The notes: a model not told the origin generated them from the letters alone. Shown: positions 45,530 through 63,812, counted from the first letter of the stretch. The stretch is 63,813 nucleotides of DNA from an uncultured virus (IMG/VR IMGVR_UViG_3300027743_000022) (IMGVR_UViG_3300027743_000022); one strand, 5' to 3'. Made by a program: numbers and translations.

Positions 45530-45743
45530 TCAGGATATTTTAGATAAGATATTAGAAAACTATGGTACTCACAAATCAATCGAAATTTGTGAAGCTATTA
45601 GTTTAATGTATGATATTAAGCATTTAAATTGTTGTCCAGATGATTCTGGATGTGTTTCTGAAAATGATTATCAACGTGATTGGTGGGCTGAAGCGTCTGT
45701 CAATCTAAAAAATCAATATTTATGTTTACAAAAGAATTCCTAG
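45522..45743 (+). CDS. Hypothetical protein
   Basis: ORF track. Confidence 0.6.
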   Translation: MFNQDILDKILENYGTHKSIEICEAISLMYDIKHLNCCPDDSGCVSENDYQRDWWAEASVNLKNQYLCLQKNS

Positions 45744-46126: not shown

Positions 46127-46129
46127 GTC

Positions 46130-46423
46130 ATGGAAAGGATATTCAACCTATACAAAGGATTTGTTGTTAAGCATCCAAAGTATTCAGGTGTCGTGTGTGG
46201 ATACACAGAAGCTCATTTTATATTAGCTGTTAAAACTAAAGACACTGATTTCTTTAGAGTACTTAAAGGAGGATTCTATGTAATGGATAAGTATAAACAT
46301 AAGAGATATAGATATATCTTTGAGGATGAAAATGTGGTTGAACAACAATTTAAATTTGGTCCACAATGGCTGCTAAAAAAACAGAAGACAACGATAAAGG
46401 AACAAAACTCCAAGAAACCATAG
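46130..46423 (+). CDS. Hypothetical protein
   Basis: ORF track. Confidence 0.65.
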   Translation: MERIFNLYKGFVVKHPKYSGVVCGYTEAHFILAVKTKDTDFFRVLKGGFYVMDKYKHKRYRYIFEDENVVEQQFKFGPQWLLKKQKTTIKEQNSKKP

Positions 46424-47421
46424 ACAAACTTAATAAGGCTTATGGTGTTGGAACAATCCTGTCCCTGGATAGTAAGTCTATAGGAGATTATGAGGTTATC
46501 AGTACAGGCTCTATAGGATTTGATTATATAGCTTTGGGAACTGGTGGATTTATTTATGGTAAAGTCTATGAACTTATGGGTTGGGAAGGTACAGGTAAGT
46601 CAACTATATGTGGTCATGTTGCTGCTGAATGTCAAAAGATAGGTGGTACTGTAGCATATATAGATGGTGAGCATGCTGTAGACAGACATTACTTTGAAGC
46701 TCTTGGAGTAGATACAAGTAAGATGCTATTCGCTCAGCCCAGCTGTGGTGAAGAAGGTTTTCAAATAGCACTAGATTTAGCAAAAACTGGAGAGGTGAAT
46801 CTAATAATAATAGATTCAGACTCTTCTCTTATGCCTAAGAAAGTAGTAGATGGTGATGTTGGTGACTCAGCCATTGGTAAAAAGGCTGTACTCAATAATA
46901 ATTCCTATCCTAAATTGAAAACTACCTGCTCTGAGAACAAGGTTTGCCTAATAGTAATCAGCCAGTTTAGAGAAAAGATTGGTGTTATGTTTGGTAATCC
47001 TACCACAACTCAGGGTGGACATGCTCTTAAGTTTTATTCAGATTGTAGAATAGAAGTGAGTAAATCCCAATTAAAAGATGGTGATGATATGATAGGTAAT
47101 CTAACCAAGATTAAAGTTATCAAGAATAAAATGGCACCACCATTCAAGCTTTGTTCTTTTAATATACTCTATGGTGTAGGTATTGATAAGGGAACAGAAA
47201 TACTTGAGCTTATGAATAAATATTCCATAGGCAGGAAGTATGGTGGTTTTATGACATATGAGGGTAATAAAATGTCTCTTGATGTTTTTTTAGATTTGCT
47301 ATCTGAAGAAACTTTCTATAATAAAATCAGGAGTGATATTATTACTAAGATTAATGAGGACGATGATAAACCTAAAATGATTGTAGAAGATGGTAATTCC
47401 GATCAAGAAACTGCACCCTGA
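46366..47421 (+). CDS. recA: RecA recombinase
   Basis: ISTGS, GWEGTGKST, IDGEHA, IIIDS, SQFREKIGVMFGNPTTTQGGHALKFYS, KNK. Confidence 0.95.
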   Translation: MAAKKTEDNDKGTKLQETIDKLNKAYGVGTILSLDSKSIGDYEVISTGSIGFDYIALGTGGFIYGKVYELMGWEGTGKSTICGHVAAECQKIGGTVAYIDGEHAVDRHYFEALGVDTSKMLFAQPSCGEEGFQIALDLAKTGEVNLIIIDSDSSLMPKKVVDGDVGDSAIGKKAVLNNNSYPKLKTTCSENKVCLIVISQFREKIGVMFGNPTTTQGGHALKFYSDCRIEVSKSQLKDGDDMIGNLTKIKVIKNKMAPPFKLCSFNILYGVGIDKGTEILELMNKYSIGRKYGGFMTYEGNKMSLDVFLDLLSEETFYNKIRSDIITKINEDDDKPKMIVEDGNSDQETAP

Positions 47422-47893
47422 AGCACACCTTCCTGAATATACTAAGAGTAATGCTGCTATGGATTTAGTAGCTATTACTAAGGTATTTGATGAGTATGGA
47501 TGTGTTGAATTTGGTACTGGGATATCAATAGAGATTCCTAGTGGCTATATAGGACTAATATTTCCAAGGAGTATTAATGGTAAGAAGGATCTGTTATTAG
47601 CTGATAGTGTTATGGTTATTAATCCTAATGACCATAGTGAGATTAAACTAAAGTTCAGACCTTCAGCTTTCTTTGCTGATGATTGTCCTACAGTTTCCAT
47701 ATTATCTGGAAAAAGATCAGACACATTTGATTATGTCTGCTTTGGTAAAGAGTGTGTGGAAGATGAAAACAATATGGATATTTATAATGTTGGAGATAAA
47801 GTTGGACAGTTACTAATTATCCCCAGACCATACATACAATGGTCAGAGGTGGTTGATTATGTTCCTAATGCTAATTCATCAACAACAACATGA
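47390..47893 (+). CDS. dUTPase-fold protein, probably catalytically degenerate
   Basis: AAMDL, GTGI, FPRS and GDKVGQL present; motif 3 altered and motif 5 absent. Confidence 0.8.
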   Translation: MVIPIKKLHPEAHLPEYTKSNAAMDLVAITKVFDEYGCVEFGTGISIEIPSGYIGLIFPRSINGKKDLLLADSVMVINPNDHSEIKLKFRPSAFFADDCPTVSILSGKRSDTFDYVCFGKECVEDENNMDIYNVGDKVGQLLIIPRPYIQWSEVVDYVPNANSSTTT

Positions 47894-48264
47894 AAACCTG
47901 TAGTGTAACAGGATGTAACAATCCTGTATGGGGAAAGGGAGTATGTCAGATACATGCTCCCAGGACCCCACTAAAGAAATCTATAAAGGAAACTACTTCT
48001 GATAATAGAAATGCTTTCTTTATGGAGATATGGAAAGAGAGACCACATGTTTGTGAACATTGTGGTAAATCTCTTGGAAGGGAACCTTTAAGTTATATGT
48101 TTGATCACATTCTTGAGAAGAGTAAACATCAAGACTTATCCTTTGAGAAGGATAACATATGGTTAGTCTGCTTAGAATGTCATGATAATAAAACTAGAGG
48201 TATCCTAACAGACAAGTACAAGGAAAAGATTAACTTTGTCAAAACTAAATTCGATAGGTCATGA
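47890..48264 (+). CDS. HNH endonuclease
   Basis: CEHCG...FDHILEK...NIWLVCLECH. Confidence 0.82.
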   Translation: MKTCSVTGCNNPVWGKGVCQIHAPRTPLKKSIKETTSDNRNAFFMEIWKERPHVCEHCGKSLGREPLSYMFDHILEKSKHQDLSFEKDNIWLVCLECHDNKTRGILTDKYKEKINFVKTKFDRS

Positions 48265-48929
48265 GAGAACAGAACAGACCTCGCAAGGGTGACATTAACT
48301 ACAATGTTACTCTTAATGAAGAACAAAAACAAGCTAAACAATTGATAATTGACAATCAAATTGTCATTGTCACAGGAAGAGCTGGTAGTGGTAAGAGTTT
48401 ATTGTGTGCTCAGACAGCACTGGGCTTTCTAATGACTAAGCAATGTGATAAGATACTTGTCACAAGAGCTGCTATCGAAGTGGGTAATTCTCTGGGGTTT
48501 TTACCTGGAGATTTAAAAGAAAAGTTTGATCCTTACCTTGAGGCTTTTCAAGAAAACCTTGTCATGTGCTATGACAAGATGAAAATCATGGAATATATTA
48601 AAGAAGACAAGATCACAGCACTACCTGTGCAGTTTATTAGAGGTAAAACTATCAATGATGTTCTTGTTATTGAAGAAGCTCAGAATCTTACTAAGCATGA
48701 GATGCTTGCTTTATTAACCAGACTAGGTAAGACAGGTAAGATAATCATTAATGGAGATTTAGAGCAACAAGATATTAGAGACAGTTTTAATGGTCTTAGC
48801 TATGCTATAGAACTATCTAAAAAGATAGAAGGTATAGAGTGGATTAAACTAAAACACAATCACAGAAGTGATTTGGTTGGTCAAATTCTTGAACTTGAAT
48901 ATGATAAGAAATTTTCTAAAACAAACTAA
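48261..48929 (+). CDS. phoH: PhoH-like ATPase
   Basis: GRAGSGKS, LGFLPGDLKEK, FIRG, EEAQN, LTRLG, GDLEQ. Confidence 0.93.
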   Translation: MREQNRPRKGDINYNVTLNEEQKQAKQLIIDNQIVIVTGRAGSGKSLLCAQTALGFLMTKQCDKILVTRAAIEVGNSLGFLPGDLKEKFDPYLEAFQENLVMCYDKMKIMEYIKEDKITALPVQFIRGKTINDVLVIEEAQNLTKHEMLALLTRLGKTGKIIINGDLEQQDIRDSFNGLSYAIELSKKIEGIEWIKLKHNHRSDLVGQILELEYDKKFSKTN

Positions 48930-48930
48930 T

Positions 48931-49224
48931 ATGACACAGAAATCAATTAAGCTCTTAGGTAACAGAGTTTACCTGGAAATACCTGAGGAAATAAAGACCA
49001 GTATTCATTTAGATAAAGCTACTAAAGCAGCTTTAGAAGAGGAAAGAATGAGAACCTGGGGCAGACTTAAAGTCTTTGCTGTTGGTTCTGCAATTGAAGG
49101 TTTAAAAGAAGGTGATGAGGTGATGATAGACCCTACAGCAGTAGAGAAAGTTCGTCAGATACCTATTAGTCCTACTCATTATGTTTTATTAGTATCTTAT
49201 CACGACATCTCACATATTTGGTAA
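48931..49224 (+). CDS. groES: GroES-like co-chaperonin
   Basis: IKLLGNRVYL...KVFAVG...LKEGDEV...LVSYHDI; start moved to 48931. Confidence 0.75.
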   Translation: MTQKSIKLLGNRVYLEIPEEIKTSIHLDKATKAALEEERMRTWGRLKVFAVGSAIEGLKEGDEVMIDPTAVEKVRQIPISPTHYVLLVSYHDISHIW

Positions 49225-50018
49225 TGAAACTTCCATTTATTTCCGCAAAATGCGTTACATATGGAAGGGTAAATTTGCTTGAGGAAGCTTTCTACAGCTT
49301 CCTTAAGCAAGATTATCCTAAAGACAGATGTGAACTCATTATAGTGAATGACTATCCATTACAGAGGCTAAAATTACCTAAAGAATTAGAGTCATCTAAT
49401 ATAAGGATATTCAATTTGGGTGCAACCTTTCCAACCATAGGTGCTAAAGAGAACTTTGCTACAGCTAAATGTAGAGGAGATATAATATGTCAATGGGATG
49501 ATGATGATGTGGCTCTTCCTAATCATTTCAATAATGTAGTAAAATACTTTGATAAAGATGCTAATATATTACACTGGGGAAGAGGAGCTTACTGGGAAGA
49601 ACCTAATATAGTATCTCTCACAGGCTTAGGTAACTCTGGTATAGTATTTAGAAAATCAGCTTGGGAAGCTATAGGAGGACATCCTTTAGAGAATGCTGGT
49701 TATGATATGACTTTTGTCAATAGACTTCATAGGTTAGGAATTACAACAGCTGTTCCAGCTAAAGAAGAAGTAAGTTGGTTCTATAGATGGGGATTTGTTA
49801 ACTATGATTGTTATCATCAGTCAGGAAGAGGTACAGATGATGGAACTTTTCCTAATATTATAGAAAGACATACACAGCACATAGAAGATCTAAGAAAACA
49901 AGGTAAAATACCTATAGGAGATATAATACTAAACCCTCACTGGAATTACGATTATGAACAACAACTTAAAGACTATAACAGCTATAGTAATAAACAGGAA
50001 TCTTCTAACTACCCTTAA
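49224..50018 (+). CDS. Glycosyltransferase family 2
   Basis: TYGR...QDYP...IIVND, GAKEN, WDDDD. Confidence 0.88.
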   Translation: MKLPFISAKCVTYGRVNLLEEAFYSFLKQDYPKDRCELIIVNDYPLQRLKLPKELESSNIRIFNLGATFPTIGAKENFATAKCRGDIICQWDDDDVALPNHFNNVVKYFDKDANILHWGRGAYWEEPNIVSLTGLGNSGIVFRKSAWEAIGGHPLENAGYDMTFVNRLHRLGITTAVPAKEEVSWFYRWGFVNYDCYHQSGRGTDDGTFPNIIERHTQHIEDLRKQGKIPIGDIILNPHWNYDYEQQLKDYNSYSNKQESSNYP

Positions 50019-50601
50019 AGCAACAGTAGATTTCTTATTAAAGGAACCTAGAGTAAGAGTAGTTATATATGATCAACAATCAACTTATCCACCTTTATTG
50101 GAATATTATGAATCATGTCCTGTTGACGTGATATATGCTAATAACAATAGAGGACCTACCAGTGCTTGGGATGGTGTCTTAGATGTATATAGAACTAATT
50201 ACTTTATTGTAACAGATCCTGATTGTCTATATGATGATGTACCAGATGATTGGTTAGACAAGATGTTATATGCTTTAGACGTATATAATGTACCTAAGGT
50301 AGGATTCTCACTAAGTCTAGATGACTTACCAGAAACTAACTTTAGACAAGAGATTATAGATTGGGAAAAGAAATATTATATATATAAGAATGAAGTAGGA
50401 TGGTTTGCTGATGTTGATACAACCTTTGCTTTGTATAGACCTAACCATTCATTCTCTTATCAAGCTATTAGACTTGACTTACCTTATTGTATTAAACATG
50501 TACCTTGGTATCTTACTAAACTAAATGATGAGTGGAATTATTATCTTGATAATGCTTCATCAGTTAGTACATGGGGAACTAGACTAAAAAACTTATTATG
50601 A
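49954..50601 (+). CDS. GT-A fold glycosyltransferase
   Basis: IYDQQSTYPPLL, VTDPD (DxD), DTTFALY, H.PWY. Confidence 0.78.
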   Translation: MNNNLKTITAIVINRNLLTTLKATVDFLLKEPRVRVVIYDQQSTYPPLLEYYESCPVDVIYANNNRGPTSAWDGVLDVYRTNYFIVTDPDCLYDDVPDDWLDKMLYALDVYNVPKVGFSLSLDDLPETNFRQEIIDWEKKYYIYKNEVGWFADVDTTFALYRPNHSFSYQAIRLDLPYCIKHVPWYLTKLNDEWNYYLDNASSVSTWGTRLKNLL

Positions 50602-51137
50602 AAATAGAAACTATTTACGAGACACTTTGTACTACACCTTCAGATATAAATGAACATCTTCCTACTCTAAAGAAATATGCTTTAGAATGTGATCATATTA
50701 CAGAATTTGGTGTTAGATATGTTGTATCTACTTATGCTTTACTAGCAGGAAAACCTAAGAATATGATATCTTATGATATAAATCCAGTTAATTGGATTCC
50801 TATAGCAATTGAATGTGTAAACCATACAGATTTTACTTTTATTCAAGGTAATACTTTGGAAATAGAAATTGAACCTACTGAATTATTATTCATTGATACT
50901 CTTCACAATTATAATCAACTCTCTCAGGAATTAAAGTTACATGGAAATAAGGTAAGTAAATATTTGATATTCCATGATACTACTTCCTATGAATTAAATG
51001 GAGAATCTTATGATGGAGTCCCACAGGAAGGAATCTGGAAGGCTATAGAAGAATTCATGGAGAGTAATCCTCATTGGAAATTAAAGGAAAGATTCTTTTA
51101 TAATAATGGTTTGACTATTCTTAAGAGAACATCCTAA
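50598..51137 (+). CDS. Class I SAM-dependent methyltransferase (Methyltransf_24-like)
   Basis: EFGVR..VST, SYDI, LFIDTLH, IFHDT. Confidence 0.85.
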   Translation: MKIETIYETLCTTPSDINEHLPTLKKYALECDHITEFGVRYVVSTYALLAGKPKNMISYDINPVNWIPIAIECVNHTDFTFIQGNTLEIEIEPTELLFIDTLHNYNQLSQELKLHGNKVSKYLIFHDTTSYELNGESYDGVPQEGIWKAIEEFMESNPHWKLKERFFYNNGLTILKRTS

Positions 51138-51193: not shown

Positions 51194-51751
51194 TTATTTT
51201 AGACGATAGGTTACACCAAATTCCAAGTTATGAGTATCAATACCTCCATTGACAGGTCTAATGTTAGCATTGGAAAGATGTCTAAGACCATAGGTCATAT
51301 TAAGACTCACATCTTCTATCTTATATGTTGCACCTAAAGCAAGGTTACTACTAAATGCCACTCCTTTTGATAATCTTGGAGTAGATTTACTTAAGTAGTC
51401 AGGACCTACACTTAGTAATACAAGTCCACTAAACTGTTTACTAAAACTTCTTCTAGCAATACCACCAATGTTTAAGGAGTATTCTTTCAGATCAATTACA
51501 TTACCATATTGTATATGTTCTGCAAAGTTAATCTCAGGTGCTAATAGCACTTGATATTGGAGGTAATGATTTTTTTGTTTAGGAGTAAATAACCAGTTAG
51601 CTCTGAAGTAATGATTATTGTGTTCATAGTTCTTAGCTGTGTATGCTTTACCAGCACCATAACTTAAACCAATATCAATACCTTCTTTTTGTTCTTGTCC
51701 ATATATATTTAAAGCACAAAAACATAATACAATTAACAGCAATTTTTTCAT
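51194..51751 (-). CDS. PagL-like lipid A 3-O-deacylase / acyloxyacyl hydrolase outer-membrane barrel
   Basis: Signal peptide, alternating beta strands, RHLSNA...NGG.D catalytic motif. Confidence 0.8.
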   Translation of the reverse strand: MKKLLLIVLCFCALNIYGQEQKEGIDIGLSYGAGKAYTAKNYEHNNHYFRANWLFTPKQKNHYLQYQVLLAPEINFAEHIQYGNVIDLKEYSLNIGGIARRSFSKQFSGLVLLSVGPDYLSKSTPRLSKGVAFSSNLALGATYKIEDVSLNMTYGLRHLSNANIRPVNGGIDTHNLEFGVTYRLK

Positions 51752-53095: not shown

Positions 53096-54169
53096 TTAGC
53101 ATTGTCTAACTAGTTGACCTCTGATTTCTCCATCAGGATAAGCAGCAGTATGGATGTTTACATAGTAAAAACCATTATCCAAATCTACTTGCTGAGCAGC
53201 ATTCAAAGGAGGGCTTACAAAATGCATTGGATTAGTTGCATGACTAATAAGGAATAGAACAGGACCAGCTACACCTTCAGCACCTCTATGTATATGAGCT
53301 GAAATAGGATCTAAGCCTTCAAAGTTCACTGTTAGTTTAGCAACTCTAGTTACAGGATTGAATTCAATAAATGCTTCACCAGTTGCATCTGAAGGATTAG
53401 GAGGAACCTCTTTATTACCTCTTAGAACTGCTCTAAAAGATACTACACCTTGTGCAGTTGTAGAACTAGTAGTAGAATTAGCACTAGTAGAACTAGTAGT
53501 AGTGCTAGGGTTAATACTAGTGGTACTGGTAGTAGAACTATTGGGATTCATACTGGTAGAACTGGAAGTAGTAGAGTTAGGATTGAAACTAGTTGTACTC
53601 GTAGTAGAATTAGGATTCATACTAGTTGTACTAGTAGTACTGGAACCATTCACAGTAGTTGAACTTGTAGTAGAACTAGGATTTACACTAGTAGTACTAG
53701 TTGTTGAACTAGTGTTCATAGTAGTTGAACTAGTTGTACTGGGATTCATACTAGTGGAACTGGTAGTAGAGCTAGGATTAATAGTTGTGGAACTAGTAGT
53801 AGTAGTATTAGGATTAAATGTTGTAGAAGTAGTGGTAGTACTACCATTATCTTCTACTCCAAAATATTCTTTGTACAATGCTCTAGCAACAACAAGATCT
53901 TGATTAACTTTTTTAAGACTTAATTCAAGTTTAAAAATTTTATCAACCCAAACTTTTGGTACATATCTTCTTCCTAATAGGTAGTCATCAAGATCTTCAG
54001 AGTCTTGAATTTTACGCTGAATAGCTTCTCTTTTTCTAACTAGATCAGCTATAAGGTTTTCAAAAGCATCTTTTGTTGTTCTAAACATTAGAAGTGCTTT
54101 AGGACTTAAGTCTCCTCCATTAGGAGCTAGTAAGCGTTGAAATTTCGTAATTTCTACATCGTTTGCCAT
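53096..54169 (-). CDS. Coiled-coil + Ser/Thr repeat linker + CHRD domain protein
   Basis: C-terminal L.G..EVPP...A.G.A...AHIH.G..G..GP...YVNIHT..YP.GEIRGQ. Confidence 0.88.
   Translation of the reverse strand: MANDVEITKFQRLLAPNGGDLSPKALLMFRTTKDAFENLIADLVRKREAIQRKIQDSEDLDDYLLGRRYVPKVWVDKIFKLELSLKKVNQDLVVARALYKEYFGVEDNGSTTTTSTTFNPNTTTTSSTTINPSSTTSSTSMNPSTTSSTTMNTSSTTSTTSVNPSSTTSSTTVNGSSTTSTTSMNPNSTTSTTSFNPNSTTSSSTSMNPNSSTTSTTSINPSTTTSSTSANSTTSSTTAQGVVSFRAVLRGNKEVPPNPSDATGEAFIEFNPVTRVAKLTVNFEGLDPISAHIHRGAEGVAGPVLFLISHATNPMHFVSPPLNAAQQVDLDNGFYYVNIHTAAYPDGEIRGQLVRQC
53455..53845 (-). repeat. Tandem repeat encoding about 12 copies of ~11-aa STTSTT-x-NP[SN]
   Basis: Visible in the translation and as actagt/gtagta periodicity. 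Confidence 0.85.
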
Positions 54170-54187
54170 GGCATTTTTTAATTTAAA

Positions 54188-54481
54188 TTATTTTACTTTT
54201 TTCAATCTCTTGTTAGTACTTTCAGGTACTGCTTGTATAGGCAGTGAAGCATCTTGTTCCTCACTGGATCTAACTTCATAAATGGAACCATCTTCTACCG
54301 ATTTAGCTACAAGACTTTCAATTCTTTTATTAGCTTCATAGGCCATAATAGCATTGGTTGCTTCTTGTGTTGCTAAGATACCTCTTAAGGTATTTAAGAT
54401 TAATCCTAGATCTTGTCCTGATATAACAAACTTAGTGTCAGGATTCCAGGTGTAATTCTTAGTTGGATCATAAGTTGCCAT
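54188..54481 (-). CDS. Hypothetical protein
   Basis: ORF track; TAACTTTG element upstream. Confidence 0.75.
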   Translation of the reverse strand: MATYDPTKNYTWNPDTKFVISGQDLGLILNTLRGILATQEATNAIMAYEANKRIESLVAKSVEDGSIYEVRSSEEQDASLPIQAVPESTNKRLKKVK

Positions 54482-54509
54482 AATATAATTATTTAATTGG
54501 TTTGAATAA

Positions 54510-54517
54510 CAAAGTTA
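54510..54517 (-). promoter_or_regulatory. Bacteroidota-type -7 promoter element
   Basis: Reverse complement TAACTTTG. Confidence 0.45.
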
Positions 54518-54527
54518 AAAAATATTT

Positions 54528-54812
54528 TCAATTTAGTGTAACATTAAATGTTATAACTGCGCTAGTTTTTATTGATTTTCCCATGTCTAATCTTAGCCCT
54601 AACAAATTATGGAATTTTAGTATCTCTTCTATAAGTAAGTTAGTATACATAGGTAGGCTTGGAGCTAATCTAAACCTATAACTTGTGGGAGTCTTTACAA
54701 TTTCTAAACTGGAAAGTTCATCCACAGATTCAATTATACCTTTCAAACTTGCGAAGTAAACAGCTTCATTGTCAGGCAGAACAGAAGGAAAAAATTTCTT
54801 TACTAGTTCCAT
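54528..54812 (-). CDS. Hypothetical protein
   Basis: TAATG-coupled. Confidence 0.7.
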   Translation of the reverse strand: MELVKKFFPSVLPDNEAVYFASLKGIIESVDELSSLEIVKTPTSYRFRLAPSLPMYTNLLIEEILKFHNLLGLRLDMGKSIKTSAVITFNVTLN

Positions 54813-55216
54813 TAACTTAGGGTTAATCTATAAAGGGTTTTAGCAGCATCACCTGATAGGGTTTGTGCCATATTCTCTATGTCACAAAAATGATTCTTAT
54901 TTCCATAGAGCTCCAGTTGATATGCAAATTCATGTAATTCCTTTACACATCTCCTAGTGAATTCTGGAGTGTAGTTTTGTATAGGATCTACAGGCATAGC
55001 TTTAGTGCGTACACCTGTGTATCCCATAATTTTTTCTACAAAATCATCCTTAGCAGTAAATACTATACCATATAGATCCCCAAGAGCTTCATGTTCAGCA
55101 AAAGATTTAGTTTGCCAATGCAATTCATGTATCTGTAGCTCAAAATAATTAAACTTAGCCTTGATAACATCAAGAGTAAGATTATTGTCAGTCATCTCTT
55201 TGGGAAAAATAGCCAT
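54812..55216 (-). CDS. Ferritin/Dps-like protein (DUF5856-type)
   Basis: HELHWQT.SFAEH.ALGDLY...D.FVEK.MG, KTLYRLTL. Confidence 0.8.
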   Translation of the reverse strand: MAIFPKEMTDNNLTLDVIKAKFNYFELQIHELHWQTKSFAEHEALGDLYGIVFTAKDDFVEKIMGYTGVRTKAMPVDPIQNYTPEFTRRCVKELHEFAYQLELYGNKNHFCDIENMAQTLSGDAAKTLYRLTLS

Positions 55217-55227
55217 AGTATTTAGTA

Positions 55228-55473
55228 TTAAGGTATTGTTGTAGTAGTGGTAGTACTAGGAGCTACTGTAGTTGTACTAGTAGTTGATGCATCAGGTGCA
55301 TAGGGTACTACGTCATATGGTGATGGGTTAGGGCCACAGCATAGATGTGCTGAGACTTCTTTCCAATTACCAACCTTAGGCTTAGATCTTCTTAAGATCA
55401 AGCTACCAGGAATAATTCTGCCTCTACCATCGTATCTAACGTATGCTCTGAGGTCTCGCTTATTCGGATCCAT
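55228..55473 (-). CDS. Small protein with Thr-rich tail
   Basis: AYVRYDG.GRIIPGSLIL...CC...STTSTTTVAPSTTTTT. Confidence 0.75.
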   Translation of the reverse strand: MDPNKRDLRAYVRYDGRGRIIPGSLILRRSKPKVGNWKEVSAHLCCGPNPSPYDVVPYAPDASTTSTTTVAPSTTTTTTIP

Positions 55474-55491
55474 AATAAAAATTATTTAAGG

Positions 55492-56508
55492 TTAATATTC
55501 AAGTTTATATTTTTCATGTAATTCTTTGAGCTTCTTGGCGTACATCCAGGTACAGAACCCTTTAGATGTTTCATCATTAAGCACAACATCTATCTGACTA
55601 TCTTTAAAAGGATCACTACCTGTATGGTATTTACCTTTATAGAATGCTGGATATCCATTTCCAGTTTCAGATACTATTCCTGCATTGTGTAATATAGTAT
55701 TAGAATTCATCTTATCTATTACATCACTACTCCATGCAAAATTTAATTCAGGAACAATCTTAGTCTCTTTATCTCTTAACCAGAGATTCCATAAGACTGC
55801 CCACATATCAGCACACCAACTTTGAAATCCTTTATCTTCTGATTCAAAGAAGTTCTTATTAATGTGTTGAAGATATCTTCTTATTATTATACAGTCTCCA
55901 ATTACTTTCATCCAGAATTTACTATCTGTATCTTTAAGAAGATATTGTGCACCACCAGAATCATTATTATGTTCTTCACATATCTCTCTATTGATACCTA
56001 TAAAGCTTGTAAGCTCACTTAGTATGTCTCTTGCTTTATATTCTTCCAGCTTATCAGGGAGAACATCTTTTACTTTACTATCAAAATAGCTAGCATTAAT
56101 GTAACTGTTTGTATCTGATAGATAGTTAACATCATCTTCAATAAGATTGTCTATATTAAAGTTCTTTGTAAATACAATATCACTATCACAATAGAAGATT
56201 GCTTTATTAGAATATGAAGGTTCATCTTTTAAGAATCTCCACATAGTATAAGGTCTTAATATAGGAATATATGTTCCTAGTAAAGGTGATATTTCATCCT
56301 CGTCCCTGTAAAATTTAAATAGGGCCTCAGGATATAGGTCTGTAATCTGTTTCCACTTAGGGTTTTGTTCCCTAAAATTAGGTGTAAAGATCAGCACTAC
56401 TGCTTTACTACTCATACCTAATTCTCTTAAACTTTCTAACCAGAGATTCACTTGCCATGTGTAGTAAGTATCGTCTGGTTGGATACAAAGGAAAACTAAA
56501 TCTTTCAT
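55492..56508 (-). CDS. GT-A glycosyltransferase resembling plant HPAT/SGT peptide O-glycosyltransferases
   Basis: YYTWQ, Y.PILRP, YCDSDIVF (DxD), GGAQY, WCADMWA, ILH; start moved to 56508. Confidence 0.7.
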   Translation of the reverse strand: MKDLVFLCIQPDDTYYTWQVNLWLESLRELGMSSKAVVLIFTPNFREQNPKWKQITDLYPEALFKFYRDEDEISPLLGTYIPILRPYTMWRFLKDEPSYSNKAIFYCDSDIVFTKNFNIDNLIEDDVNYLSDTNSYINASYFDSKVKDVLPDKLEEYKARDILSELTSFIGINREICEEHNNDSGGAQYLLKDTDSKFWMKVIGDCIIIRRYLQHINKNFFESEDKGFQSWCADMWAVLWNLWLRDKETKIVPELNFAWSSDVIDKMNSNTILHNAGIVSETGNGYPAFYKGKYHTGSDPFKDSQIDVVLNDETSKGFCTWMYAKKLKELHEKYKLEY

Positions 56509-56509
56509 A

Positions 56510-57106
56510 TTAACATTGGTTTTTTGGTTTAGATCTTTCATCTCTCTTAAGAATCTTCATGGTATGTGTCTTCCAAGTTCTACCATAAATTATATTTCTA
56601 AAGATTTCTATAGGTATACCCATATCTACAGATATACTTTTAATAGAACGCCCTGAGTTGTACTCAGTTTTAAACTTAGTTACTATAATATTAGTGACTT
56701 TAGCTTTAATATTATTCTCACCTGCTCTACTAGGCTGTAAACCCAGTCTGTATGCATGTAGTTGATTCTCACTATTAGTAGTCCATTCTAAATTCACAGC
56801 TCTACAATCAGTCTTAATACCATTAATGTGATTAACCTGAGGTTTATTCTCAGGATTTGGTATAAAAGCTTCTGCAACTAATCTATGAGGATTTCTTTCA
56901 AGAGCTTTCCCATTAATATGAAAAACAACACTAGGATATCCTTTTTTATTTAGTTTAGGAACTAAGATTTTACCCTTTACAGGAGTAAGACCCTTTCTCA
57001 TAATATATCTATCAATACTTCTAACCCTACCAAGATCACTTACTTCATAGAGATCATTACCTACACAAGGTAGCCAAGTCTCTGTAAGGAATGTTAACTC
57101 TCTCAT
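56510..57106 (-). mobile_element. NUMOD4-HNH homing endonuclease
   Basis: YEVSDLGRVRS; HRLVAEAFIPNPENKPQVNHING.K......NLEW...EN..HA. Confidence 0.92.
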
Positions 57107-57118
57107 ATGTAATTGGTT

Positions 57119-57289
57119 TTAATGTTTATGATGACCTTTATGTTTACCAGGATTATTACAATGATAATGTTTATCATAATATTCTCTGGTACATACACGC
57201 TTTTTATGATTATGTACTCTAGGAGTACTTGTATGGATTGTACAAGATGTAACTACCAATGCTAATAATAAAACTGCTAGTATTTTCAT
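57119..57289 (-). CDS. Small His-rich lipoprotein (56 aa)
   Basis: Hand-translated MKILAVLLLALVVTSC...HYHCNNPGKHKGHHKH. Confidence 0.65.
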   Translation of the reverse strand: MKILAVLLLALVVTSCTIHTSTPRVHNHKKRVCTREYYDKHYHCNNPGKHKGHHKH

Positions 57290-57312
57290 AGTTTTTTTGT
57301 TTATATAACTAT

Positions 57313-57320
57313 CAAATATA
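57313..57320 (-). promoter_or_regulatory. Bacteroidota-type -7 promoter element
   Basis: Reverse complement TATATTTG. Confidence 0.5.
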
Positions 57321-57328
57321 CAAAATAA

Positions 57329-57354
57329 AAAAGCCCTATCAAAGTAGGGCTTTT
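57329..57354 (-). terminator. Intrinsic terminator
   Basis: AAAAGCCCTA-tcaaag-TAGGGCTTTT. Confidence 0.75.
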
Positions 57355-57370
57355 AAATTTAAATTAATAA

Positions 57371-59251
57371 TTATTTTTCCTTAACCACTCTCAAAGTTTT
57401 CACTTCTGTAGCTTGTTTAAGGATTACATTATATACACCTATAGGATAACCTTCTCCTAGTTGGATATTTTTACTTTCACTAGCTCTAAGGCTTTTATTC
57501 TCTATTCTTCTACCTAACATATCATATACATTTACATCTAATGGAGAATCACTATCAGTAGTAATATCTAAATTAAAGTTTGTTGTATAAGGATTAGGAG
57601 AAGCAATAAATCTAGAAATTCCTATGTTTTTAGTTGGAGTAAAATTATTAGTTGGAGTAGTACTATTCAATAGATTAATACCTTGTTTAATTGCTACACA
57701 ACTTTCTGAAGGGGCTGATGTATTAGGAGATTTCTCAACGTTACAGTGATTAACACCACCTTCATTGTTAAATCCATCTAACTTAGCTCCAAGAGCATTA
57801 CATGTACCACCTGCAAAAGCAGCATTAACCTGAGCAACTAAACCATTTACTCCATCAATAGTAGGAATTCCAAAAGGTAATCCTTCACAGATGTTTAATA
57901 GAGCAGCTACAGATTGTCTTGCCAAGTTTTCACAACCAGTGTTTCCTTTTAAGTTCAGTGCTTGAAGCAATGTTAAATCAGCAGCAAGTGTTGAACCAGA
58001 GAATACATCTTTGTACAATGTACATGTTGTATAAGCATCACACCAAGCTTTAGTATGATTTTTCCAGTATCCTAAAGTACATCCATTAAGTTCACAAACT
58101 TCTCTTGTAACTACTTGACTACATTGTACTGAATGAATACCACAAAGGTTAGACACATCCCAAGTACGTGTAGATGATAGTCCATCAGGGCTTACTACAG
58201 TACTAATAATATTAACTACCAGAGGACCACAAATACCACTTGGTGTAGGTGCATCAAATTCAAACTGAGCATTACAAGCAATTAGCTTAGCAGCAACACA
58301 TTGAATATTAGGTGCTGTAGCAGCTAACACTTCAAATATAGCTGTACACTCATCTCTTTGTCCACAAGCATCTGTTACAACAAATCTAACTGTTCTAATA
58401 CCACCACATTTATCAGGGGCACCAGCAGCATCAGGAATCACTTCTACAGGATTTCTATTAATACCACCACTTGTTTGAACTGTATTTAACCATGCAATAA
58501 ATGCAGCATCAAGAGATGCTTGGTCTGCATAAGTACAAGCAGCATCATGTCTGTCTACAGGACAGGTAACATCTAGAGCAACTGCCACAGGATTAATAAT
58601 ATTAATCACTTGGGAGAACCCATGACAATGGGTTGAACCATCTAAAGGAGTATCTTCAATTTCAATAACATAGGCTCCAGGAGCTATATTAGCAAAGACA
58701 TTACTAGCTTGAGGACCTGCAACTATTGGACCTGCAGCAGTACCTTGATGTAATGTGAATAAATAACCACCAGGGAATTGAGCAGGATCACCACCTGCTG
58801 TTATAACAGTACCAAAGTCAGTAGCTGTAATAGTAGTAAGCTCATTAGGACATAGAACAGCAGGTGCATTACCTTCTACAACTACTACCTTAGAAACACC
58901 AGAAGAAGAACATGAAGTTCCTGCAGGATTACCAGGGAAAGTCATTAATACTGTTACACTACCAGGATTATCTCCCATTGTAACTAATATACTATTTATG
59001 TTACCAGCAGAAACAGAAGTAATTGATTGTAAACCATTAGAAAACTTAGCACCACCTGAAGTATCAGCTGTAATTGTCCAAGTTAATATTGTACCATCTG
59101 CTATACCAAAACTAGTGGAAGTCCACAATAAATTATCACCAGCACAAGCAAAGCTTCCTGGATTAGTATTCGAGTTGAAACATGTTTGTGCAGATGTATT
59201 AGTAACGAAAGCTACAAACATTAGCAATAATAGGATAATCTTTTTCATCAT
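57371..59251 (-). CDS. Cys-rich secreted protein with T9SS type-A C-terminal sorting domain
   Basis: Signal peptide then Gln+1; SprB/HYR-like repeats; TLGYWKNH domain; SPNPY...VYDMLGR...GVYNV...KTLRVVK CTD. Confidence 0.88.
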   Translation of the reverse strand: MMKKIILLLLMFVAFVTNTSAQTCFNSNTNPGSFACAGDNLLWTSTSFGIADGTILTWTITADTSGGAKFSNGLQSITSVSAGNINSILVTMGDNPGSVTVLMTFPGNPAGTSCSSSGVSKVVVVEGNAPAVLCPNELTTITATDFGTVITAGGDPAQFPGGYLFTLHQGTAAGPIVAGPQASNVFANIAPGAYVIEIEDTPLDGSTHCHGFSQVINIINPVAVALDVTCPVDRHDAACTYADQASLDAAFIAWLNTVQTSGGINRNPVEVIPDAAGAPDKCGGIRTVRFVVTDACGQRDECTAIFEVLAATAPNIQCVAAKLIACNAQFEFDAPTPSGICGPLVVNIISTVVSPDGLSSTRTWDVSNLCGIHSVQCSQVVTREVCELNGCTLGYWKNHTKAWCDAYTTCTLYKDVFSGSTLAADLTLLQALNLKGNTGCENLARQSVAALLNICEGLPFGIPTIDGVNGLVAQVNAAFAGGTCNALGAKLDGFNNEGGVNHCNVEKSPNTSAPSESCVAIKQGINLLNSTTPTNNFTPTKNIGISRFIASPNPYTTNFNLDITTDSDSPLDVNVYDMLGRRIENKSLRASESKNIQLGEGYPIGVYNVILKQATEVKTLRVVKEK

Positions 59252-59268
59252 AATAAAATTTAAAGGTT

Positions 59269-59314
59269 AAAAAAAAAATAAGAGACCCCCACAGTAAGTG
59301 GGGACTCTCTTATT
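59269..59314 (-). terminator. Intrinsic terminator
   Basis: AATAAGAGA-CCCCCAC/GTGGGG-A-CTCTCTTATT inverted repeat with A run on + strand. Confidence 0.7.
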
Positions 59315-59324
59315 AGATTATTAA

Positions 59325-61883
59325 TTAATCATTATGTTTTCCACAGTGGTGTTTACCTCCTTTGTGATGTTTACATTTGTCTTTACATCCATAATGTTGA
59401 CATTTGTGTTCACAAGGTTTTACAACATCATCACAACATTTCAATGTTATACATTGAGTAGCATAACCAATGTTACCACAATCGTCAGCAGCTTGCCATT
59501 TTTTACAGTAAGTAACAGTACCATCAGCATTTTTAGTGATTGTTAAATCAATACCAACAGCAATCAAACATTTAGAATCACAAGCATCAAACACTTTAGG
59601 AGTGTCAAATTCAGGTGCTACATAAAGGTCACATAGTTTATCACATACTGCATGTAAGTCTTTTGACTTAGCAAACGGTGCACAGATAGTTTTATCAGGC
59701 AAACAAGTTAATACAGGGGCTGTTTTATCTTCTGTCCATGTAAAGATCTCTAACCATGGTAAGCTACGTTTTCCACAAGGAGAAACAGCTACGTATGTTC
59801 TGATTTGAGTTCTTTTACATTTAAATAAGTCTTTAACATCACCTACTTTAACTTCTACAGTGTATCCACAAGGAGCTTTTACAAGAACCTCACCAGCTAC
59901 TGGTAGATCTCCTATTGGGTTACAACCTAGGTCACGACCTATAGGTCCTTTCAAAATAATAGGGGCGTATGGTTCCTCTGTCCATGTAAACACTTGTTCA
60001 CATTTAAAACCTAGAGGATTACATTCAGTAGTCACAGTGTAAGTACGAATTCTTTGTTTTTTACATCCTTCAAGGTTAGTTACTGCACCTAATGCACTAA
60101 CAACTTTATAAGGACAAGTAGTACCTACTTCAACTACTCCAGGAGCAGGAATATCAATATCACCACATTTATTCAAACATCCAAGGTCTTTACCTTCAGG
60201 ACATTTAATTGTAAATGGTAAATCTACTTTCCATGTAAACACTTGTTCAGCTGTTACACCATTAGGGTAACAATCAGTAACTACTTTGAAGGTACGAACC
60301 AATCTATAGTTACAACCATCTATTACAGGAGCACCATCTAAATGGGTTACAGTAGTAGGACAGTTTGATGTTACTTGAGCAACTTCAACAGCAGGAGGAA
60401 GAACAGGGTTACAGCCTAAATCTCTGTTAGCAGGGGCTTTGATTATAGGTACTGCAGCTGCATTTACAATTATTTTTTTCTTGAACACAAGTTCAGGAAG
60501 ACATCTTTGTAATGCTCTGAAAGTAACTTCTACTTCTCCACCACATTTGTCAGGTCTAACAAAAGGATCAACTATAACAGGTAGGATTCCACAATCATTG
60601 TTTGCTTTAACAATGTCAATGAACGCTTGGATTTTAGCATCTAAGTCTAATTGATTAGCACAAGCGTCTACAATTAGATTTCCTCCACCACCAAGAACAC
60701 CAGCTCTAGGACGTTCAACTTCAAATCTAGCAGAGATTTCTTGATCAACATAACATCTGTCTTTAATAACAAATCTTACTACTAATCCATCACCACCACA
60801 GAAATTAGGTACTCCATTATCTAGTCTTGTTAATGTAGGAGCACATCCACCAGCCACTTTAAAGCCTTCTAAGAACACTTTAAATGCATCAGCTAGGTTT
60901 TGTTCATTAGTAAGCTCACAGAACTTAATAAGCTTATCTGCAGGCTTCTCAAAGGTTACTGCAGGGGCAGCACCCACTTTAAATATAGCAGAACATTCTG
61001 CTCTTTGTAGACATTCATCAGTAACAGTCCACTTAACTACCACCTCACCACCACATACAGGGGGTGCTTGAGGATTAATAGGATCAGTAACTACTGTTAG
61101 ATTACCTGTACCACCACTTTTTTGAATGTTAGCTAACCATGCTGCGAATTCAACATTAACAGCATTCTGATCTGCATAGAGACAAGCACTCTTGTCTACG
61201 TTCCCTGGACAGGTTACAAAGACAGGTTTTACTTCAGGGTTAATCAAGGTCACTGCTTGAGAAGAGTCCTTACAACCACTACCATCAGTAATATCAATGG
61301 TATAAACACCAGGAGCTACACCTTCAAACACACCAGTGTTGTTTGAAATACCTCCAGGGTTTAATGTAAATGTATAATTTCCTAAGTCAATAGGAGCATT
61401 TCCATCTACGATGATAGTACCAAAATTAACAGCAGTAATAGTTCCCTTGTCATCATGACATTTGAGCGTAGAAGCAATAGCTTCCACTTGAAGGAGTTTA
61501 GAAATTCCAGATGAAGAACAAGAACCTACAGAAGGAGTAGCATCAAAGGTCATTACAACAGTAACAGTACCAGCTTTAGCACCTACATTAACTAACACAG
61601 TGTTGATGTTTCCAACAGCAGTTGTGCTATAGGTTTGTAATCCATTGGCAACAAAAAAGGCTCCACTAGAACCTTCAGTAATTTTCCAAGTAATAGCCTG
61701 TCCTGCTGTAACAGCGAAAGACGTGGTTTTCCAGGTTAAGGTTTCTCCAGCACAAACAATACTTCCAGGGGAAGTTTCTGAATTAAAACAGGTTTGACCA
61801 GAAACAGACGAAGTGACAAAGAATGTCACTAGAAACAAAAGCGATAAGAGCATCTTGAATCTACAGGGTACATCTTTTTTCAT
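59325..61883 (-). CDS. Cys-rich secreted HYR-like repeat protein with His/Cys-rich tail, paralogue of 57371..59251
   Basis: Signal peptide + QTCFNS; repeated DLGC...RT[FY].V...C...EQVFTW units. Confidence 0.85.
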   Translation of the reverse strand: MKKDVPCRFKMLLSLLFLVTFFVTSSVSGQTCFNSETSPGSIVCAGETLTWKTTSFAVTAGQAITWKITEGSSGAFFVANGLQTYSTTAVGNINTVLVNVGAKAGTVTVVMTFDATPSVGSCSSSGISKLLQVEAIASTLKCHDDKGTITAVNFGTIIVDGNAPIDLGNYTFTLNPGGISNNTGVFEGVAPGVYTIDITDGSGCKDSSQAVTLINPEVKPVFVTCPGNVDKSACLYADQNAVNVEFAAWLANIQKSGGTGNLTVVTDPINPQAPPVCGGEVVVKWTVTDECLQRAECSAIFKVGAAPAVTFEKPADKLIKFCELTNEQNLADAFKVFLEGFKVAGGCAPTLTRLDNGVPNFCGGDGLVVRFVIKDRCYVDQEISARFEVERPRAGVLGGGGNLIVDACANQLDLDAKIQAFIDIVKANNDCGILPVIVDPFVRPDKCGGEVEVTFRALQRCLPELVFKKKIIVNAAAVPIIKAPANRDLGCNPVLPPAVEVAQVTSNCPTTVTHLDGAPVIDGCNYRLVRTFKVVTDCYPNGVTAEQVFTWKVDLPFTIKCPEGKDLGCLNKCGDIDIPAPGVVEVGTTCPYKVVSALGAVTNLEGCKKQRIRTYTVTTECNPLGFKCEQVFTWTEEPYAPIILKGPIGRDLGCNPIGDLPVAGEVLVKAPCGYTVEVKVGDVKDLFKCKRTQIRTYVAVSPCGKRSLPWLEIFTWTEDKTAPVLTCLPDKTICAPFAKSKDLHAVCDKLCDLYVAPEFDTPKVFDACDSKCLIAVGIDLTITKNADGTVTYCKKWQAADDCGNIGYATQCITLKCCDDVVKPCEHKCQHYGCKDKCKHHKGGKHHCGKHND

Positions 61884-61913
61884 GAGTATATATAAAAATT
61901 AAGGGTTACGAGA

Positions 61914-62069
61914 TTAAACAACAGTAGTAGTTTCTGTTGTGGTTTCAACGCTTAAAGTAGATGGTGTAGCTGTACGACCCGTAATTTGGGTAAGTCGCTC
62001 AAGCTGTTTCAAGATTCTTCGTAGTAGTATAGCCTCTTGGCTCCAACCTATCTGCTGATTAATTGCCAT
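61914..62069 (-). CDS. Small protein (51 aa) with QQxGWS motif and Thr-rich tail
   Basis: Hand-translated MAINQQIGWSQEAILLRRILKQLERLTQITG...TTTETTTVV. Confidence 0.7.
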   Translation of the reverse strand: MAINQQIGWSQEAILLRRILKQLERLTQITGRTATPSTLSVETTTETTTVV

Positions 62070-62090
62070 GACATATTAGGTTATTGGTTA

Positions 62091-62100
62091 TGCAAATATA
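62091..62100 (-). promoter_or_regulatory. Bacteroidota-type -7 promoter element
   Basis: Reverse complement TATATTTGCA. Confidence 0.55.
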
Positions 62101-62165
62101 ATAATTATTTTTTACTTCCTTATTTTTATTTATGGTAGTAGAAAAAGAATAGTTAGTAGTATTAA

Positions 62166-63164
62166 TTAAATTCCACCATCAGTTATTATCCAGTTGTTTG
62201 GTGCACCTGTTAAAATTGCCCTTGCGGCTGTTGAAGCAGCTGTTCTTTTTGCTGCTCCAAAAGTTATAGTTATATTAGGTTTTACTGGTCTTGATGCCCA
62301 ACCAATATAAAGCGCATCTAAGTTTGCAGGGGAATAAGGAGCGAAACCTGTAGATATTGTTTTTGCAGTCATAAAACCTGCAAAACTAAGCACGTTACTT
62401 ACGTTCCAATTACCAATGTTTTGGTCAAACGCCCATTCTGTATAAAACATATTGGTCATATCTGTAACATTTGCTAATGTAGAACCTACCCTTTCCCAAT
62501 TTCCTATAGGTTGGTTAAAGCTTTTATTGTACTGAAACATACTATTCAACTTAGTTGCACTTGACATGTTCCAACCGCTAATGTCATTATTAAAAGAAGT
62601 GGTTGATGACGATTGCGCGAACATACCTGTGAAATCCTGTACTTGCGACACATCCCATTCCCCTATTCTGTTAATTCCTAAAGGAAGCGGAACTCTGTAA
62701 AATGTTTGCGCTAAACTTGTCGTGCCTGTTAAGTCCAAAACGTCCGTAACCTCATTAAGTTTTAAGTTACCACATAAATAGAAGTAACTGCCTTGTGTTG
62801 TCCCAAGCCTTAAACAACCCCAAGTCTTGATACTTAATATTTTACTCCTTTCTACACCTCCGTTAAAAAGAAGTCCTGTAATAATTCCCGTTAGACTTGT
62901 TATTTTTATAGTGTAAACGCCCGTAACTGCATAAGTATGTATCATTGCGCCTGTGCTTGTTACATTCTGTATGGGAGTGCTGTCACCCCAATCTACCGTA
63001 ACGTCAAATCCTCCTATTCCTAAAAAAGGAATCCTTATTTGGTTGGCTGCTGAACTTCCTGCTAAGGTATTTCTTGTATCCCAAGTTGACTCAAACACTC
63101 TACCTCCATACATCTGAAGAGTAGCTCTACGTTTTCCGTATTCATAAAATAATATAGGATTCAT
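62166..63164 (-). CDS. DUF285/BspA-like repeat protein with PKD-like N-terminal domain (possible virion or receptor-binding accessory)
   Basis: VDWGD...HTY...G.Y; WDVSQV..F.GMF, FN..I..W repeats. Confidence 0.85.
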   Translation of the reverse strand: MNPILFYEYGKRRATLQMYGGRVFESTWDTRNTLAGSSAANQIRIPFLGIGGFDVTVDWGDSTPIQNVTSTGAMIHTYAVTGVYTIKITSLTGIITGLLFNGGVERSKILSIKTWGCLRLGTTQGSYFYLCGNLKLNEVTDVLDLTGTTSLAQTFYRVPLPLGINRIGEWDVSQVQDFTGMFAQSSSTTSFNNDISGWNMSSATKLNSMFQYNKSFNQPIGNWERVGSTLANVTDMTNMFYTEWAFDQNIGNWNVSNVLSFAGFMTAKTISTGFAPYSPANLDALYIGWASRPVKPNITITFGAAKRTAASTAARAILTGAPNNWIITDGGI

Positions 63165-63167
63165 ATC

Positions 63168-63587
63168 TTAAGCATTAGAGATTCGTAAATAATCTATTGT
63201 ACCAACACTAGTTATAGTAGCAGTACTACCTACAATACCTGTTAAAGCAGCAGTCCCATCTACCATAACCAATGTTCTTCCTGCTCCTGCTAAAAAGGTA
63301 ATAGCACCTGTTCCACCTTTCATAAAAGAAGTAGTTAGTGGGGCATTAATGGTAAAGTTAATAGGAGTAGCACCATTATTAAGAATTACATTTTTACCAT
63401 TTTGACTCACTCCATTTGCATCAAGAGTAGCAGCTGTAATACTTGTAGAAGTAGTAATAGTAATTTGAGATGGTGTGGAACTTGCTGCTCTTAATTTAGA
63501 CAGTGCTCCAGCCAGTTTCTCTAATTCTTTAGCGATTAATTGAAGGAGTTTAGATTCTACACTCCATCCTACTTGTTGATTGTTCAT
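63168..63587 (-). CDS. Protein with QQxGWS N-terminal motif and tail-fibre-like beta C-terminus
   Basis: MNNQQVGWSVESKLL...; GTGAITF.AG.G.TL. Confidence 0.75.
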   Translation of the reverse strand: MNNQQVGWSVESKLLQLIAKELEKLAGALSKLRAASSTPSQITITTSTSITAATLDANGVSQNGKNVILNNGATPINFTINAPLTTSFMKGGTGAITFLAGAGRTLVMVDGTAALTGIVGSTATITSVGTIDYLRISNA

Positions 63588-63602
63588 AATATTATATTTT
63601 AT

Positions 63603-63812
63603 CTAGTTAATAGTAGTAATAGTAGTGGTAGTAGTTGGTTCTACTATTGTAGTGCTAGTAGTAGTAGTTAGTTCCTCTGTTGTAGAACTAGTTGTTGTGG
63701 TTGGTTCTCCCTCAGTTAATCCTAGCAAACCCAGAATTATATCTATAACTATTTTACTATTCACACCCCAATTTAAAAATTGTTCTGATGTAAGAATTAA
63801 ATTTCCCTCTTC
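63603..63812 (-). CDS. Partial ORF (runs off window) with Thr-rich tail
   Basis: Hand-translated ...GNLILTSEQFLNWG...EPTTTTSSTTEELTTTTSTTIVEPTTTTTITTIN*. Confidence 0.7.
   Translation of the reverse strand, partial: EEGNLILTSEQFLNWGVNSKIVIDIILGLLGLTEGEPTTTTSSTTEELTTTTSTTIVEPTTTTTITTIN

Follow-up and report, generated by a model that had tools for sequence, protein, structure and literature searches.

The DNA analyzed here is a 63,813-nucleotide stretch, hereafter the window, that corresponds to bases 62001-125813 of the 125,813-base record of an uncultured virus (IMGVR_UViG_3300027743_000022; completeness rating, 100%). On its minus strand, at 55492..56508, lies a gene for a putative glycosyltransferase (GT) of 338 amino acids (aa), a predicted priming enzyme, and genes for proteins with tracts of serine and threonine (S/T) are found nearby. 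This work concerns that enzyme, its relationship with the tracts, and the possibility that together they give the phage particle a coat of sugars. Gene calling placed the start of the GT gene at an upstream ATG (55492-56541, 349 aa). Position 56508, proposed in an earlier sequence-only reading of this DNA, is the likely start, because the longer version overlaps an HNH gene and the closest relatives are 337 to 353 aa long, 338 being the commonest length.

The ordered motifs listed in that reading were all present, namely, YYTWQ at residue 15, YIPILRP at 80, YCDSDIVF at 106 with its DxD at 108-110, GGAQY at 185, and WCADMWA at 231 (338-aa numbering), in addition to HNAG at 274 and FYKG at 289. 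Alignment of 99 family members, reaching down to 29% identity, revealed eight positions that are invariant in all 99, Y80, D108, D110, Y136, Q229, F257, H274, and K291. In the structural model, D108 and D110 directly follow the strand formed by residues 103-107. The protein gave a full-length profile match to PHROG 4417 (E 1.1e-57; residues 6-329 against positions 3-290 of 293), a family without annotated function whose relatives are labeled "prophage pi2 protein 34." Homologs numbered 2385 at E ≤1e-3 in a set clustered at 90%, with 754 representatives at 50% clustering. The best 120 matches from a profile search of 5.8 billion proteins were all close relatives, and sequence searches of Pfam and the PDB with the GT returned nothing meaningful. 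A family match at 3032-3922 of a 30-kb Rhizosphaericola plasmid record (NZ_CP044017.1) is annotated as galactosyltransferase related, and seven further matches lie on Enterococcus plasmid records of 20-40 kb, perhaps phage-plasmids.

We counted S/T runs of at least five residues in the two arms of the genome. The minus arm, which holds terminase-, portal-, and major capsid protein (MCP)-sized genes, giant open reading frames (ORFs) of 2058 and 4638 aa, and the GT/tract region, contains 29 such runs in 11 of its 67 ORFs, compared with a mean of 0.9 and a maximum of 4 in 200 shuffles. Only two were found in the 110 ORFs of the plus arm, where the replication genes lie; one of them, possibly there by chance, is the SSTTT end of a dUTPase-like protein (47390-47893, plus strand). 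Six of the tract genes are outside the window, in the structural block at 34667-48356 of the full record. Codon choice for Thr within the tracts looks random (the same codon in 32 of 79 adjacent pairs; random expectation, 0.45), and DNA slippage was therefore rejected as their source; the tracts do not look like products of recent slippage and fit selection at the protein level. An antisense artifact was also rejected: the Val/Leu-rich plus-strand ORFs at 53358 and 63625 mirror the repeats, and in related loci the tracts occur on the GT strand only.

At least five minus-strand tract genes had been noted in the sequence-only reading, and the tract of one of them is weak. The first, at 55228..55473, directly follows the GT gene and codes for an 81-aa likely acceptor, in which a conserved domain of about 48 aa that ends in Cys-Cys precedes two C-terminal Thr-rich runs; the domain has no solved relative by sequence. 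Its family gave 151 matches in 76 of the 80 related loci of the phage's own clade, 111 of them with an S/T run of at least five residues. The second likely acceptor, a QIGWS-type protein of 51 aa (61914..62069), consists of a conserved N-terminal domain and a terminal TTTETTT, and 55 of the 91 matches to its family (57/80 loci) have such a run. The 3′ part of a Thr-rich, Thr-tailed ORF lies at 63603..63812, open at its 5′ end and cut by the end of the contig. Since both contig ends share a 15-base word (window 63795-63809), consistent with a circularly permuted assembly cut inside this gene, the latter probably continues at the genome start. The gene at 53096..54169 encodes 357 aa, with a unique N-terminal domain of 105 aa, then 12 S/T runs of 7-9 residues, mostly spaced by x-N-P (tandem period, 33 bp), and finally a CHRD domain (E 1.6e-26). 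The 12 runs hold 51 Thr and 43 Ser residues, an unusually high share of Ser, and one shorter near-copy of the protein was found. It might be a lineage-specific acceptor, and the chances that it is a substrate or a virion part are about even. The fifth case, 63168..63587, is weak. Its 139-aa product, a paralog that shares the N-terminal domain of 61914, has a single 5-residue run in a short S/T linker; it matches a PHROG of virion structural proteins weakly (PHROG 18179, E 1.2e-4).

The 55228 and 61914 families occur either as the domain plus a Thr tail or as fusions to variable domains, including laminin G, Fib_succ_major, and Lcl_C. As the small domains are joined to Thr tails or to such variable domains, we suggest that they are docking domains of decoration or fiber proteins that would likely anchor tracts on the particle. 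No N-terminal hydrophobic stretch was seen in the enzyme or in the four complete tract proteins, for none of which the sequence-only reading had noted a signal peptide: their 12-aa hydropathy maxima were 0.5 to 1.8, versus 2.9 to 3.5 in three evident secreted proteins. By this crude test, run in place of a signal-peptide predictor, the GT has no N-terminal hydrophobic or transmembrane stretch.

We then looked at the gene in other phages. tblastn found it in 77 phage records, mostly of Lactobacillus, Enterococcus, Staphylococcus, Lactococcus, and Clostridium phages, with one Chryseobacterium phage. Eleven of these records were inspected region by region, and in all 11, Thr tracts were present on capsid, tail-tube, or neighboring proteins. 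They are found on the MCP and the tail tube in phiFL1A; on the MCP, the gene preceding the GT, and the tail tube in iLp84; on a head protein and the tail tube in phiCTP1; and on three genes in MA9V-3. RQ1, VFW, and bIL285 have tracts on their tail tubes, the bIL285 MCP being without one, and in LP65, TETQ-type tracts occur on a gene labeled as a structural protein by mass spectrometry. The GT gene mostly lies inside the head/tail modules; in two herelleviruses, it is beside tract-bearing genes outside the main module.

To measure the association, loci were collected through the phiFL tail-tube family, blind to the GT, by alignment scans (a single-sequence scan gave 2 loci). Each locus was scored for the GT in its flanks and for a tail, defined as an S/T run of at least five residues within the last 45. 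Short flanks or an open gene led to the exclusion of 17 of the 129 loci (3 with both GT and tail, 12 with neither, and 2 with the tail only). Among the remaining 112, 32 had both GT and tail, none had the GT without a tail, 1 had a tail without the GT, and 79 had neither. Removal of identical cores and of one partial gene (L215) left 87 rows with the same pattern (24/0/1/62). In a tree from which the tails were left out, the GT undergoes seven changes of state, all forced by starred branches. Tail and GT change together in an average of 6.8 of the 7 independent pairs, with no change in opposite directions (sign test, median P of 0.016). Capsid proteins followed the same pattern as the tail tubes in the six cultured phages checked. 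The expected co-occurrence of the GT with Thr-tailed ORFs is thus strong.

The position of the gene inside morphogenesis operons could also mean that the protein has no catalytic function and takes part in assembly as a structural component or a chaperone, by binding the Thr tails. This appears to us the least probable of the explanations considered: the DxD, His, and Lys residues are invariant in every aligned member, and close relatives of GT-positive phages do without both the gene and the tail.

Three observations were made on the tails of cultured phages. Enterococcus phage VFW has a Thr-rich reading frame, absent from the annotation, between the capsid gene and the GT (locus L087, 5690-5830); it may extend the capsid protein through a frameshift or readthrough. 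In Staphylococcus phage RQ1, the terminal Thr run of the tail-tube gene overlaps a long Thr-rich frame (L086, 5244-5946), which suggests that programmed frameshifting yields a longer, tailed product. In Lactococcus phages, one and the same Thr run followed by RHD is found at the end of proteins that differ from one another (L301, 7123-7731; L303, 2474-5969), suggesting a tail that is passed on as a DNA cassette.

The genome itself is that of a crAss-like phage. Weak sequence matches to gp32, gp33, gp34, gp40, and gp43 of crAss001 were found in five genes, which are nevertheless in the same order, and this assignment was made on gene order and the fold of gp36, both the MCP-gp33-gp34-auxiliary capsid order and that fold being present. 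The MCP matches PHROG 11589, with weak matches to Flavobacterium Fpv phages and Lbo-JY46. A Bacteroidota host is inferred from a gene with a type IX secretion system (T9SS) tail and a PagL-like barrel (see below). Outside the window, at 47190-48356 of the full record, lies the gene of a 388-aa protein with a Thr tail. Its model (pLDDT of 70) matched crAss001 capsid chain 7qof_a by Foldseek (E 1.4e-8) and by VIA (Z 13.4, root mean square deviation [rmsd] of 8.3 over 262 aligned residues; next match, 9.0). At 333 residues, this chain is as long as auxiliary capsid protein gp36. The 388-aa protein is therefore predicted to be the auxiliary capsid protein, although it has no solved relative by sequence search, and neither do the 1486-aa protein and the MCP. 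The structural alignment stops at the last residue of gp36, so that the Thr tail appears as an added extension; crAss001 gp36 is without one. Each asymmetric unit holds nine copies of gp36, which together with the insertion domain of the MCP account for a large part of the capsid's exposed surface (PMC10172136). A location on the virion is thus supported for this protein outside the window, and the five tract proteins of the window are candidate virion proteins.

Among relatives, the auxiliary capsid ortholog is Thr tailed in 80/80 cases. The GT was found in 4 of the 18 records of these relatives, the four being all those at least 90% complete. In the phage's own clade, a tract ORF lies on the GT strand at 79 of the 80 GT loci and on the other strand at none. 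Since no GT-negative member of the clade was found, only distant crAss-related controls were available. Whole records of crAss001, FpV4, and Lbo-JY46 showed no GT in a search whose positive control, MA9V-3, was recovered at E 2.7e-100, and their S/T runs per about 10,000 virion-module residues were 1, 0, and 1, respectively, compared with 11 in 6,457 residues here.

We next considered what the enzyme might do. The AF2 model of the GT (pLDDT of 97.6, pTM of 0.94) had glycogenin and UGGT as top PDB matches by Foldseek (E about 1e-5). In a VIA search, it resembled over the whole domain glycogenin (Z 14.5, rmsd of 3.7, 232 aligned), LgtC and UGGT (14.2 each), Skp1 galactosyltransferase (14.1), and GlyE (13.0), the rmsd values over this set being 3.6-4.0 for 218-245 residues; WbbM gave 13.5 and the capsid GT of chlorovirus PBCV-1 11.2. 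Like GT8/GT24 enzymes, the phage protein has a DxD and a downstream His, but identity with them is 7-14%, and their acceptors range from protein to lipopolysaccharide (LPS). No GT8 Pfam match was obtained for the query or among the families matched by the 99 members (E ≤0.05). The enzyme is thus predicted to be a GT-A glycosyltransferase of the GT8/GT24 neighborhood, and would likely transfer sugar from a nucleoside-diphosphate (NDP)-sugar.

The fold does not dictate the product. The tracts might be modified with another chemistry, such as a sugar-phosphate or a long polymer of the kind that glycogenin primes in glycogen synthesis; glycogenin heads the fold matches, the same fold is seen in phosphotransferases and pyrophosphorylases at Z of about 9.5-10, and co-occurrence is silent on chemistry. 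We regard this as unlikely, as the closest group consists entirely of GT8/GT24-type sugar transferases, about 4 Z above the phosphotransferases, and the fusion partners described below are chain-building GTs.

The best structural match had also been expected to separate protein from LPS acceptors, and the outcome was a tie, LgtC being level with glycogenin and UGGT. With LgtC sharing first place, WbbM close, and a PagL-like barrel and a T9SS-tailed protein encoded by the same phage, the enzyme might alter the host surface (LPS, capsule, or wall polysaccharide, for serotype conversion or superinfection exclusion), the tracts being unrelated flexible linkers. This is nevertheless very unlikely in our opinion. 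It leaves unexplained the terminal tails of capsid and tail-tube proteins that appear or vanish with the gene in seven independent pairs, the same family is found in phages whose hosts, Bacillota and Bacteroidota, carry different surface glycans, and the gene usually sits within head/tail modules.

Bacteroidota possess a general protein O-glycosylation system that acts on exported proteins, and some phage GTs modify DNA. Such precedents would allow the host to modify the tracts, or the enzyme to glycosylate phage DNA, and to these taken together we give a similarly slim chance. The host system handles exported proteins, whereas the tract proteins show no signal peptide, and the tails track the phage gene. 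Regarding DNA, no TET/JBP match was found in the genome, a weak argument given that no control genome passed the cutoff, and no DNA-modifying GT appears among the top fold matches listed.

Plant hydroxyproline O-arabinosyltransferases (HPAT; GT95, PF23452) and peptidyl-serine galactosyltransferase (GT96) are O-glycosyltransferases of peptide hydroxyls, and the motif order had suggested kinship with them. This was not established. The query gave no match to the HPAT Pfam model (cutoff, 23.9 bits), only 3 of the 99 members had subthreshold matches (best E, 0.012), none of the 15 members from cultured phages and prophages matched, and no HPAT entry is among the listed fold matches of the model. 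HPAT and DUF7164 models had no match in the genome, nor in any control genome, and this result hence carries little weight. HPAT is nevertheless prominent in the Atlas, where it is carried by 22 of the 30 nearest named clusters, on 10-58% of members at scores of 0.96-0.97 (0.96 for the 58% cluster); DUF7164 is likewise found there at 0.96. As this is a language-model neighborhood, HPAT kinship is a lead only. Unlike the GT95 and GT96 enzymes, the phage protein has no signal anchor and is likely cytoplasmic.

Other genes might lengthen the glycan. Pfam domains fused to the family in 45 long homologs included GT2 (3), GT6 (2), GT7C (2), GT25, GT60 with an O-fucosyltransferase, and methyltransferases; such fused GT and methyltransferase domains are what one would expect of an enzyme that begins a glycan pathway. 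The window carries a GT2 at 49218..50018 (plus strand; Pfam GT2, E 4e-11), a candidate chain extender, which was matched in 24 of 28 GT-bearing records and in 14 of the 15 that are at least 90% complete, some at only about 30% identity. In 6 of the 45 long homologs, the GT-family domain is joined to a domain similar to this GT2 (profile E, 1e-18 to 4e-8). These data support, without proving, that it shares a pathway with the GT as a plausible extender. The proposal that this region both extends and caps the glycan has some support for the GT2 at 49218 and fades for the other two genes, which are sporadic. The second GT2, an accessory gene (49954..50601, plus), is present in 10 of the 80 related loci. 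The product of 50598..51137 (plus), an S-adenosylmethionine (SAM)-methyltransferase-like protein with a weak match to CmcI/rhamnosyl O-methyltransferase (E 0.016), was found in 2 of 80 loci and in none of the 28 records, the latter in a search without a positive control; it was rejected as a core part, and a capping role for it is speculative. Because no second GT is annotated beside the GT gene in the small siphophage regions inspected, extension may be optional.

What the sequences establish is the tracts, the invariant DxD, His, and Lys residues, and the fact that enzyme and tracts are present or absent together in phages that are unrelated. We consider it quite probable that the 338-aa GT glycosylates Thr/Ser tracts on the phage's own virion proteins to give a mucin-like coat. 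The central idea of the sequence-only reading, in which the phage would use a cytoplasmic GT of its own to modify the Ser/Thr tracts of its virion proteins, thus gains from the strong co-occurrence and the predicted GT-A fold. The soluble enzyme would act in the cytoplasm late in infection and would bind Mn and a host nucleotide-sugar through the DxD and His274. GT8 enzymes are Mn dependent and retaining, and by analogy the phage enzyme may use an Mn-dependent retaining mechanism. Within the tracts, the hydroxyls of Thr and Ser would receive the sugar either ahead of assembly or while it proceeds, and the GT2 at 49218 may lengthen chains from that first sugar. With tracts on capsid, tail, and fiber-type proteins, the particle would be covered by a mucin-like sugar coat, with shielding from antibodies, proteases, or host defenses, reduced aggregation or adsorption, and adhesion as candidate benefits. 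A bolder version, to which we give a little better than an even chance, would make PHROG 4417 an undescribed family of cytoplasmic peptide O-glycosyltransferases distantly similar to HPAT and GT96 enzymes, which together with portable Thr tracts would form a two-part module gained or lost as a unit by unrelated phages. In this abundant crAss-like clade, the targets of glycosylation would be the auxiliary capsid protein, at several hundred copies, together with tail proteins and very small dedicated carriers made of an anchor and a tract, and extension by the GT2 would yield a full mucin-like glycocalyx.

Several points weigh against this interpretation. The support for the sugar coat is comparative. 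Fold similarity cannot separate protein from LPS acceptors, as LgtC ties with glycogenin and WbbM is 1.0 Z below. The phiFL2A record keeps the tails with a frameshifted GT, and several other genes of that record are split too; one control locus (L212) has a weak tail without the GT, and the two dropped tail-only loci had no GT in less than 700 bases of upstream DNA. For the siphophages, absence of the GT was judged inside 10-20 kb flanks and not in whole genomes. As the GT and the tails both appear fixed in the phage's own clade, that clade counts as one event and not as eighty. Lastly, 53096 has no relative in the 80 clade loci and its N-terminal domain none in viral contigs, and the five tract proteins of the window have no solved or annotated virion relative, save for the weak PHROG match of 63168.

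Virion O-glycosylation by phage enzymes is known, and what would be new here is the use of PHROG 4417 together with a multisite tract. In mycobacteriophages Che8, Corndog, and Myrna, phage GTs O-glycosylate their own capsid and tail-tube proteins (Freeman et al. 2023, as described in PMC12363180 and PMC13445384), and the particles are reportedly shielded from antibodies (same sources). As in those phages, a GT is linked to acceptor sites on capsid and tail-tube proteins, here by genomic linkage alone; glycosylation was demonstrated there and is inferred here. The proposed acceptor in our case is a tract with multiple Thr/Ser sites, carried by many proteins of phages that infect Bacteroidota and Bacillota, and no mycobacteriophage is among the 77 tblastn records. 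Chlorovirus PBCV-1 (2p6w, by entry title) likewise encodes a cytoplasmic GT-A enzyme involved in glycosylation of its own capsid, but it is a eukaryotic virus and identity is 10%. PBCV-1 capsid glycans are N-linked, and we know of no Thr tracts in that system. We found no description of the GT family or of Thr-tailed virion proteins in a literature search in which subscription journals and supplements were mostly outside the range. The accessible part of a survey of low-complexity regions (PMC6821194) makes no link between GT and Thr tails, and the portions available of PMC7824862 and PMC7886860 do not mention the system.

If this interpretation is correct, sugar-coated virions are no mycobacteriophage oddity. 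They would be widespread among environmental crAss-like phages as well as phages of dairy, the gut, and staphylococci, and virion glycosylation could be predicted from sequence by the enzyme and Thr tails. The finding would assign a role to a phage family that is widespread yet unannotated, would bear on how virion proteomes, antigenicity, and adsorption are read, including for therapeutic phages, and would add a soluble O-glycosyltransferase of the bacterial cytoplasm with a simple peptide acceptor.

Other minus-strand genes of the window were also noted. Three small tract-free genes at 54188-55216 are kept beside the GT in 63, 70, and 73 of the 80 loci; that at 54812 belongs to DUF5856/PHROG 858, labeled as a starvation-inducible regulator, and its two small neighbors have no assigned family. 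A DUF285 repeat protein with one Ser-rich run (62166-63164) lies among the tract genes. The gene at 57371-59251 codes for a 626-aa protein that has a signal peptide and, at its C terminus, a T9SS sorting domain (PF18962); this protein is apparently routed through the host type IX secretion system. The 852-aa product of 59325-61883 is a secreted-type, Cys-rich repeat protein with a His/Lys/Cys-rich end and no Pfam match, the N-terminal region of which resembles 57371; both genes are absent from the 80 related loci. Finally, 51194-51751 encodes a PagL-like outer membrane beta-barrel (lipid A deacylase family; E 4e-12) that might modify the host surface.

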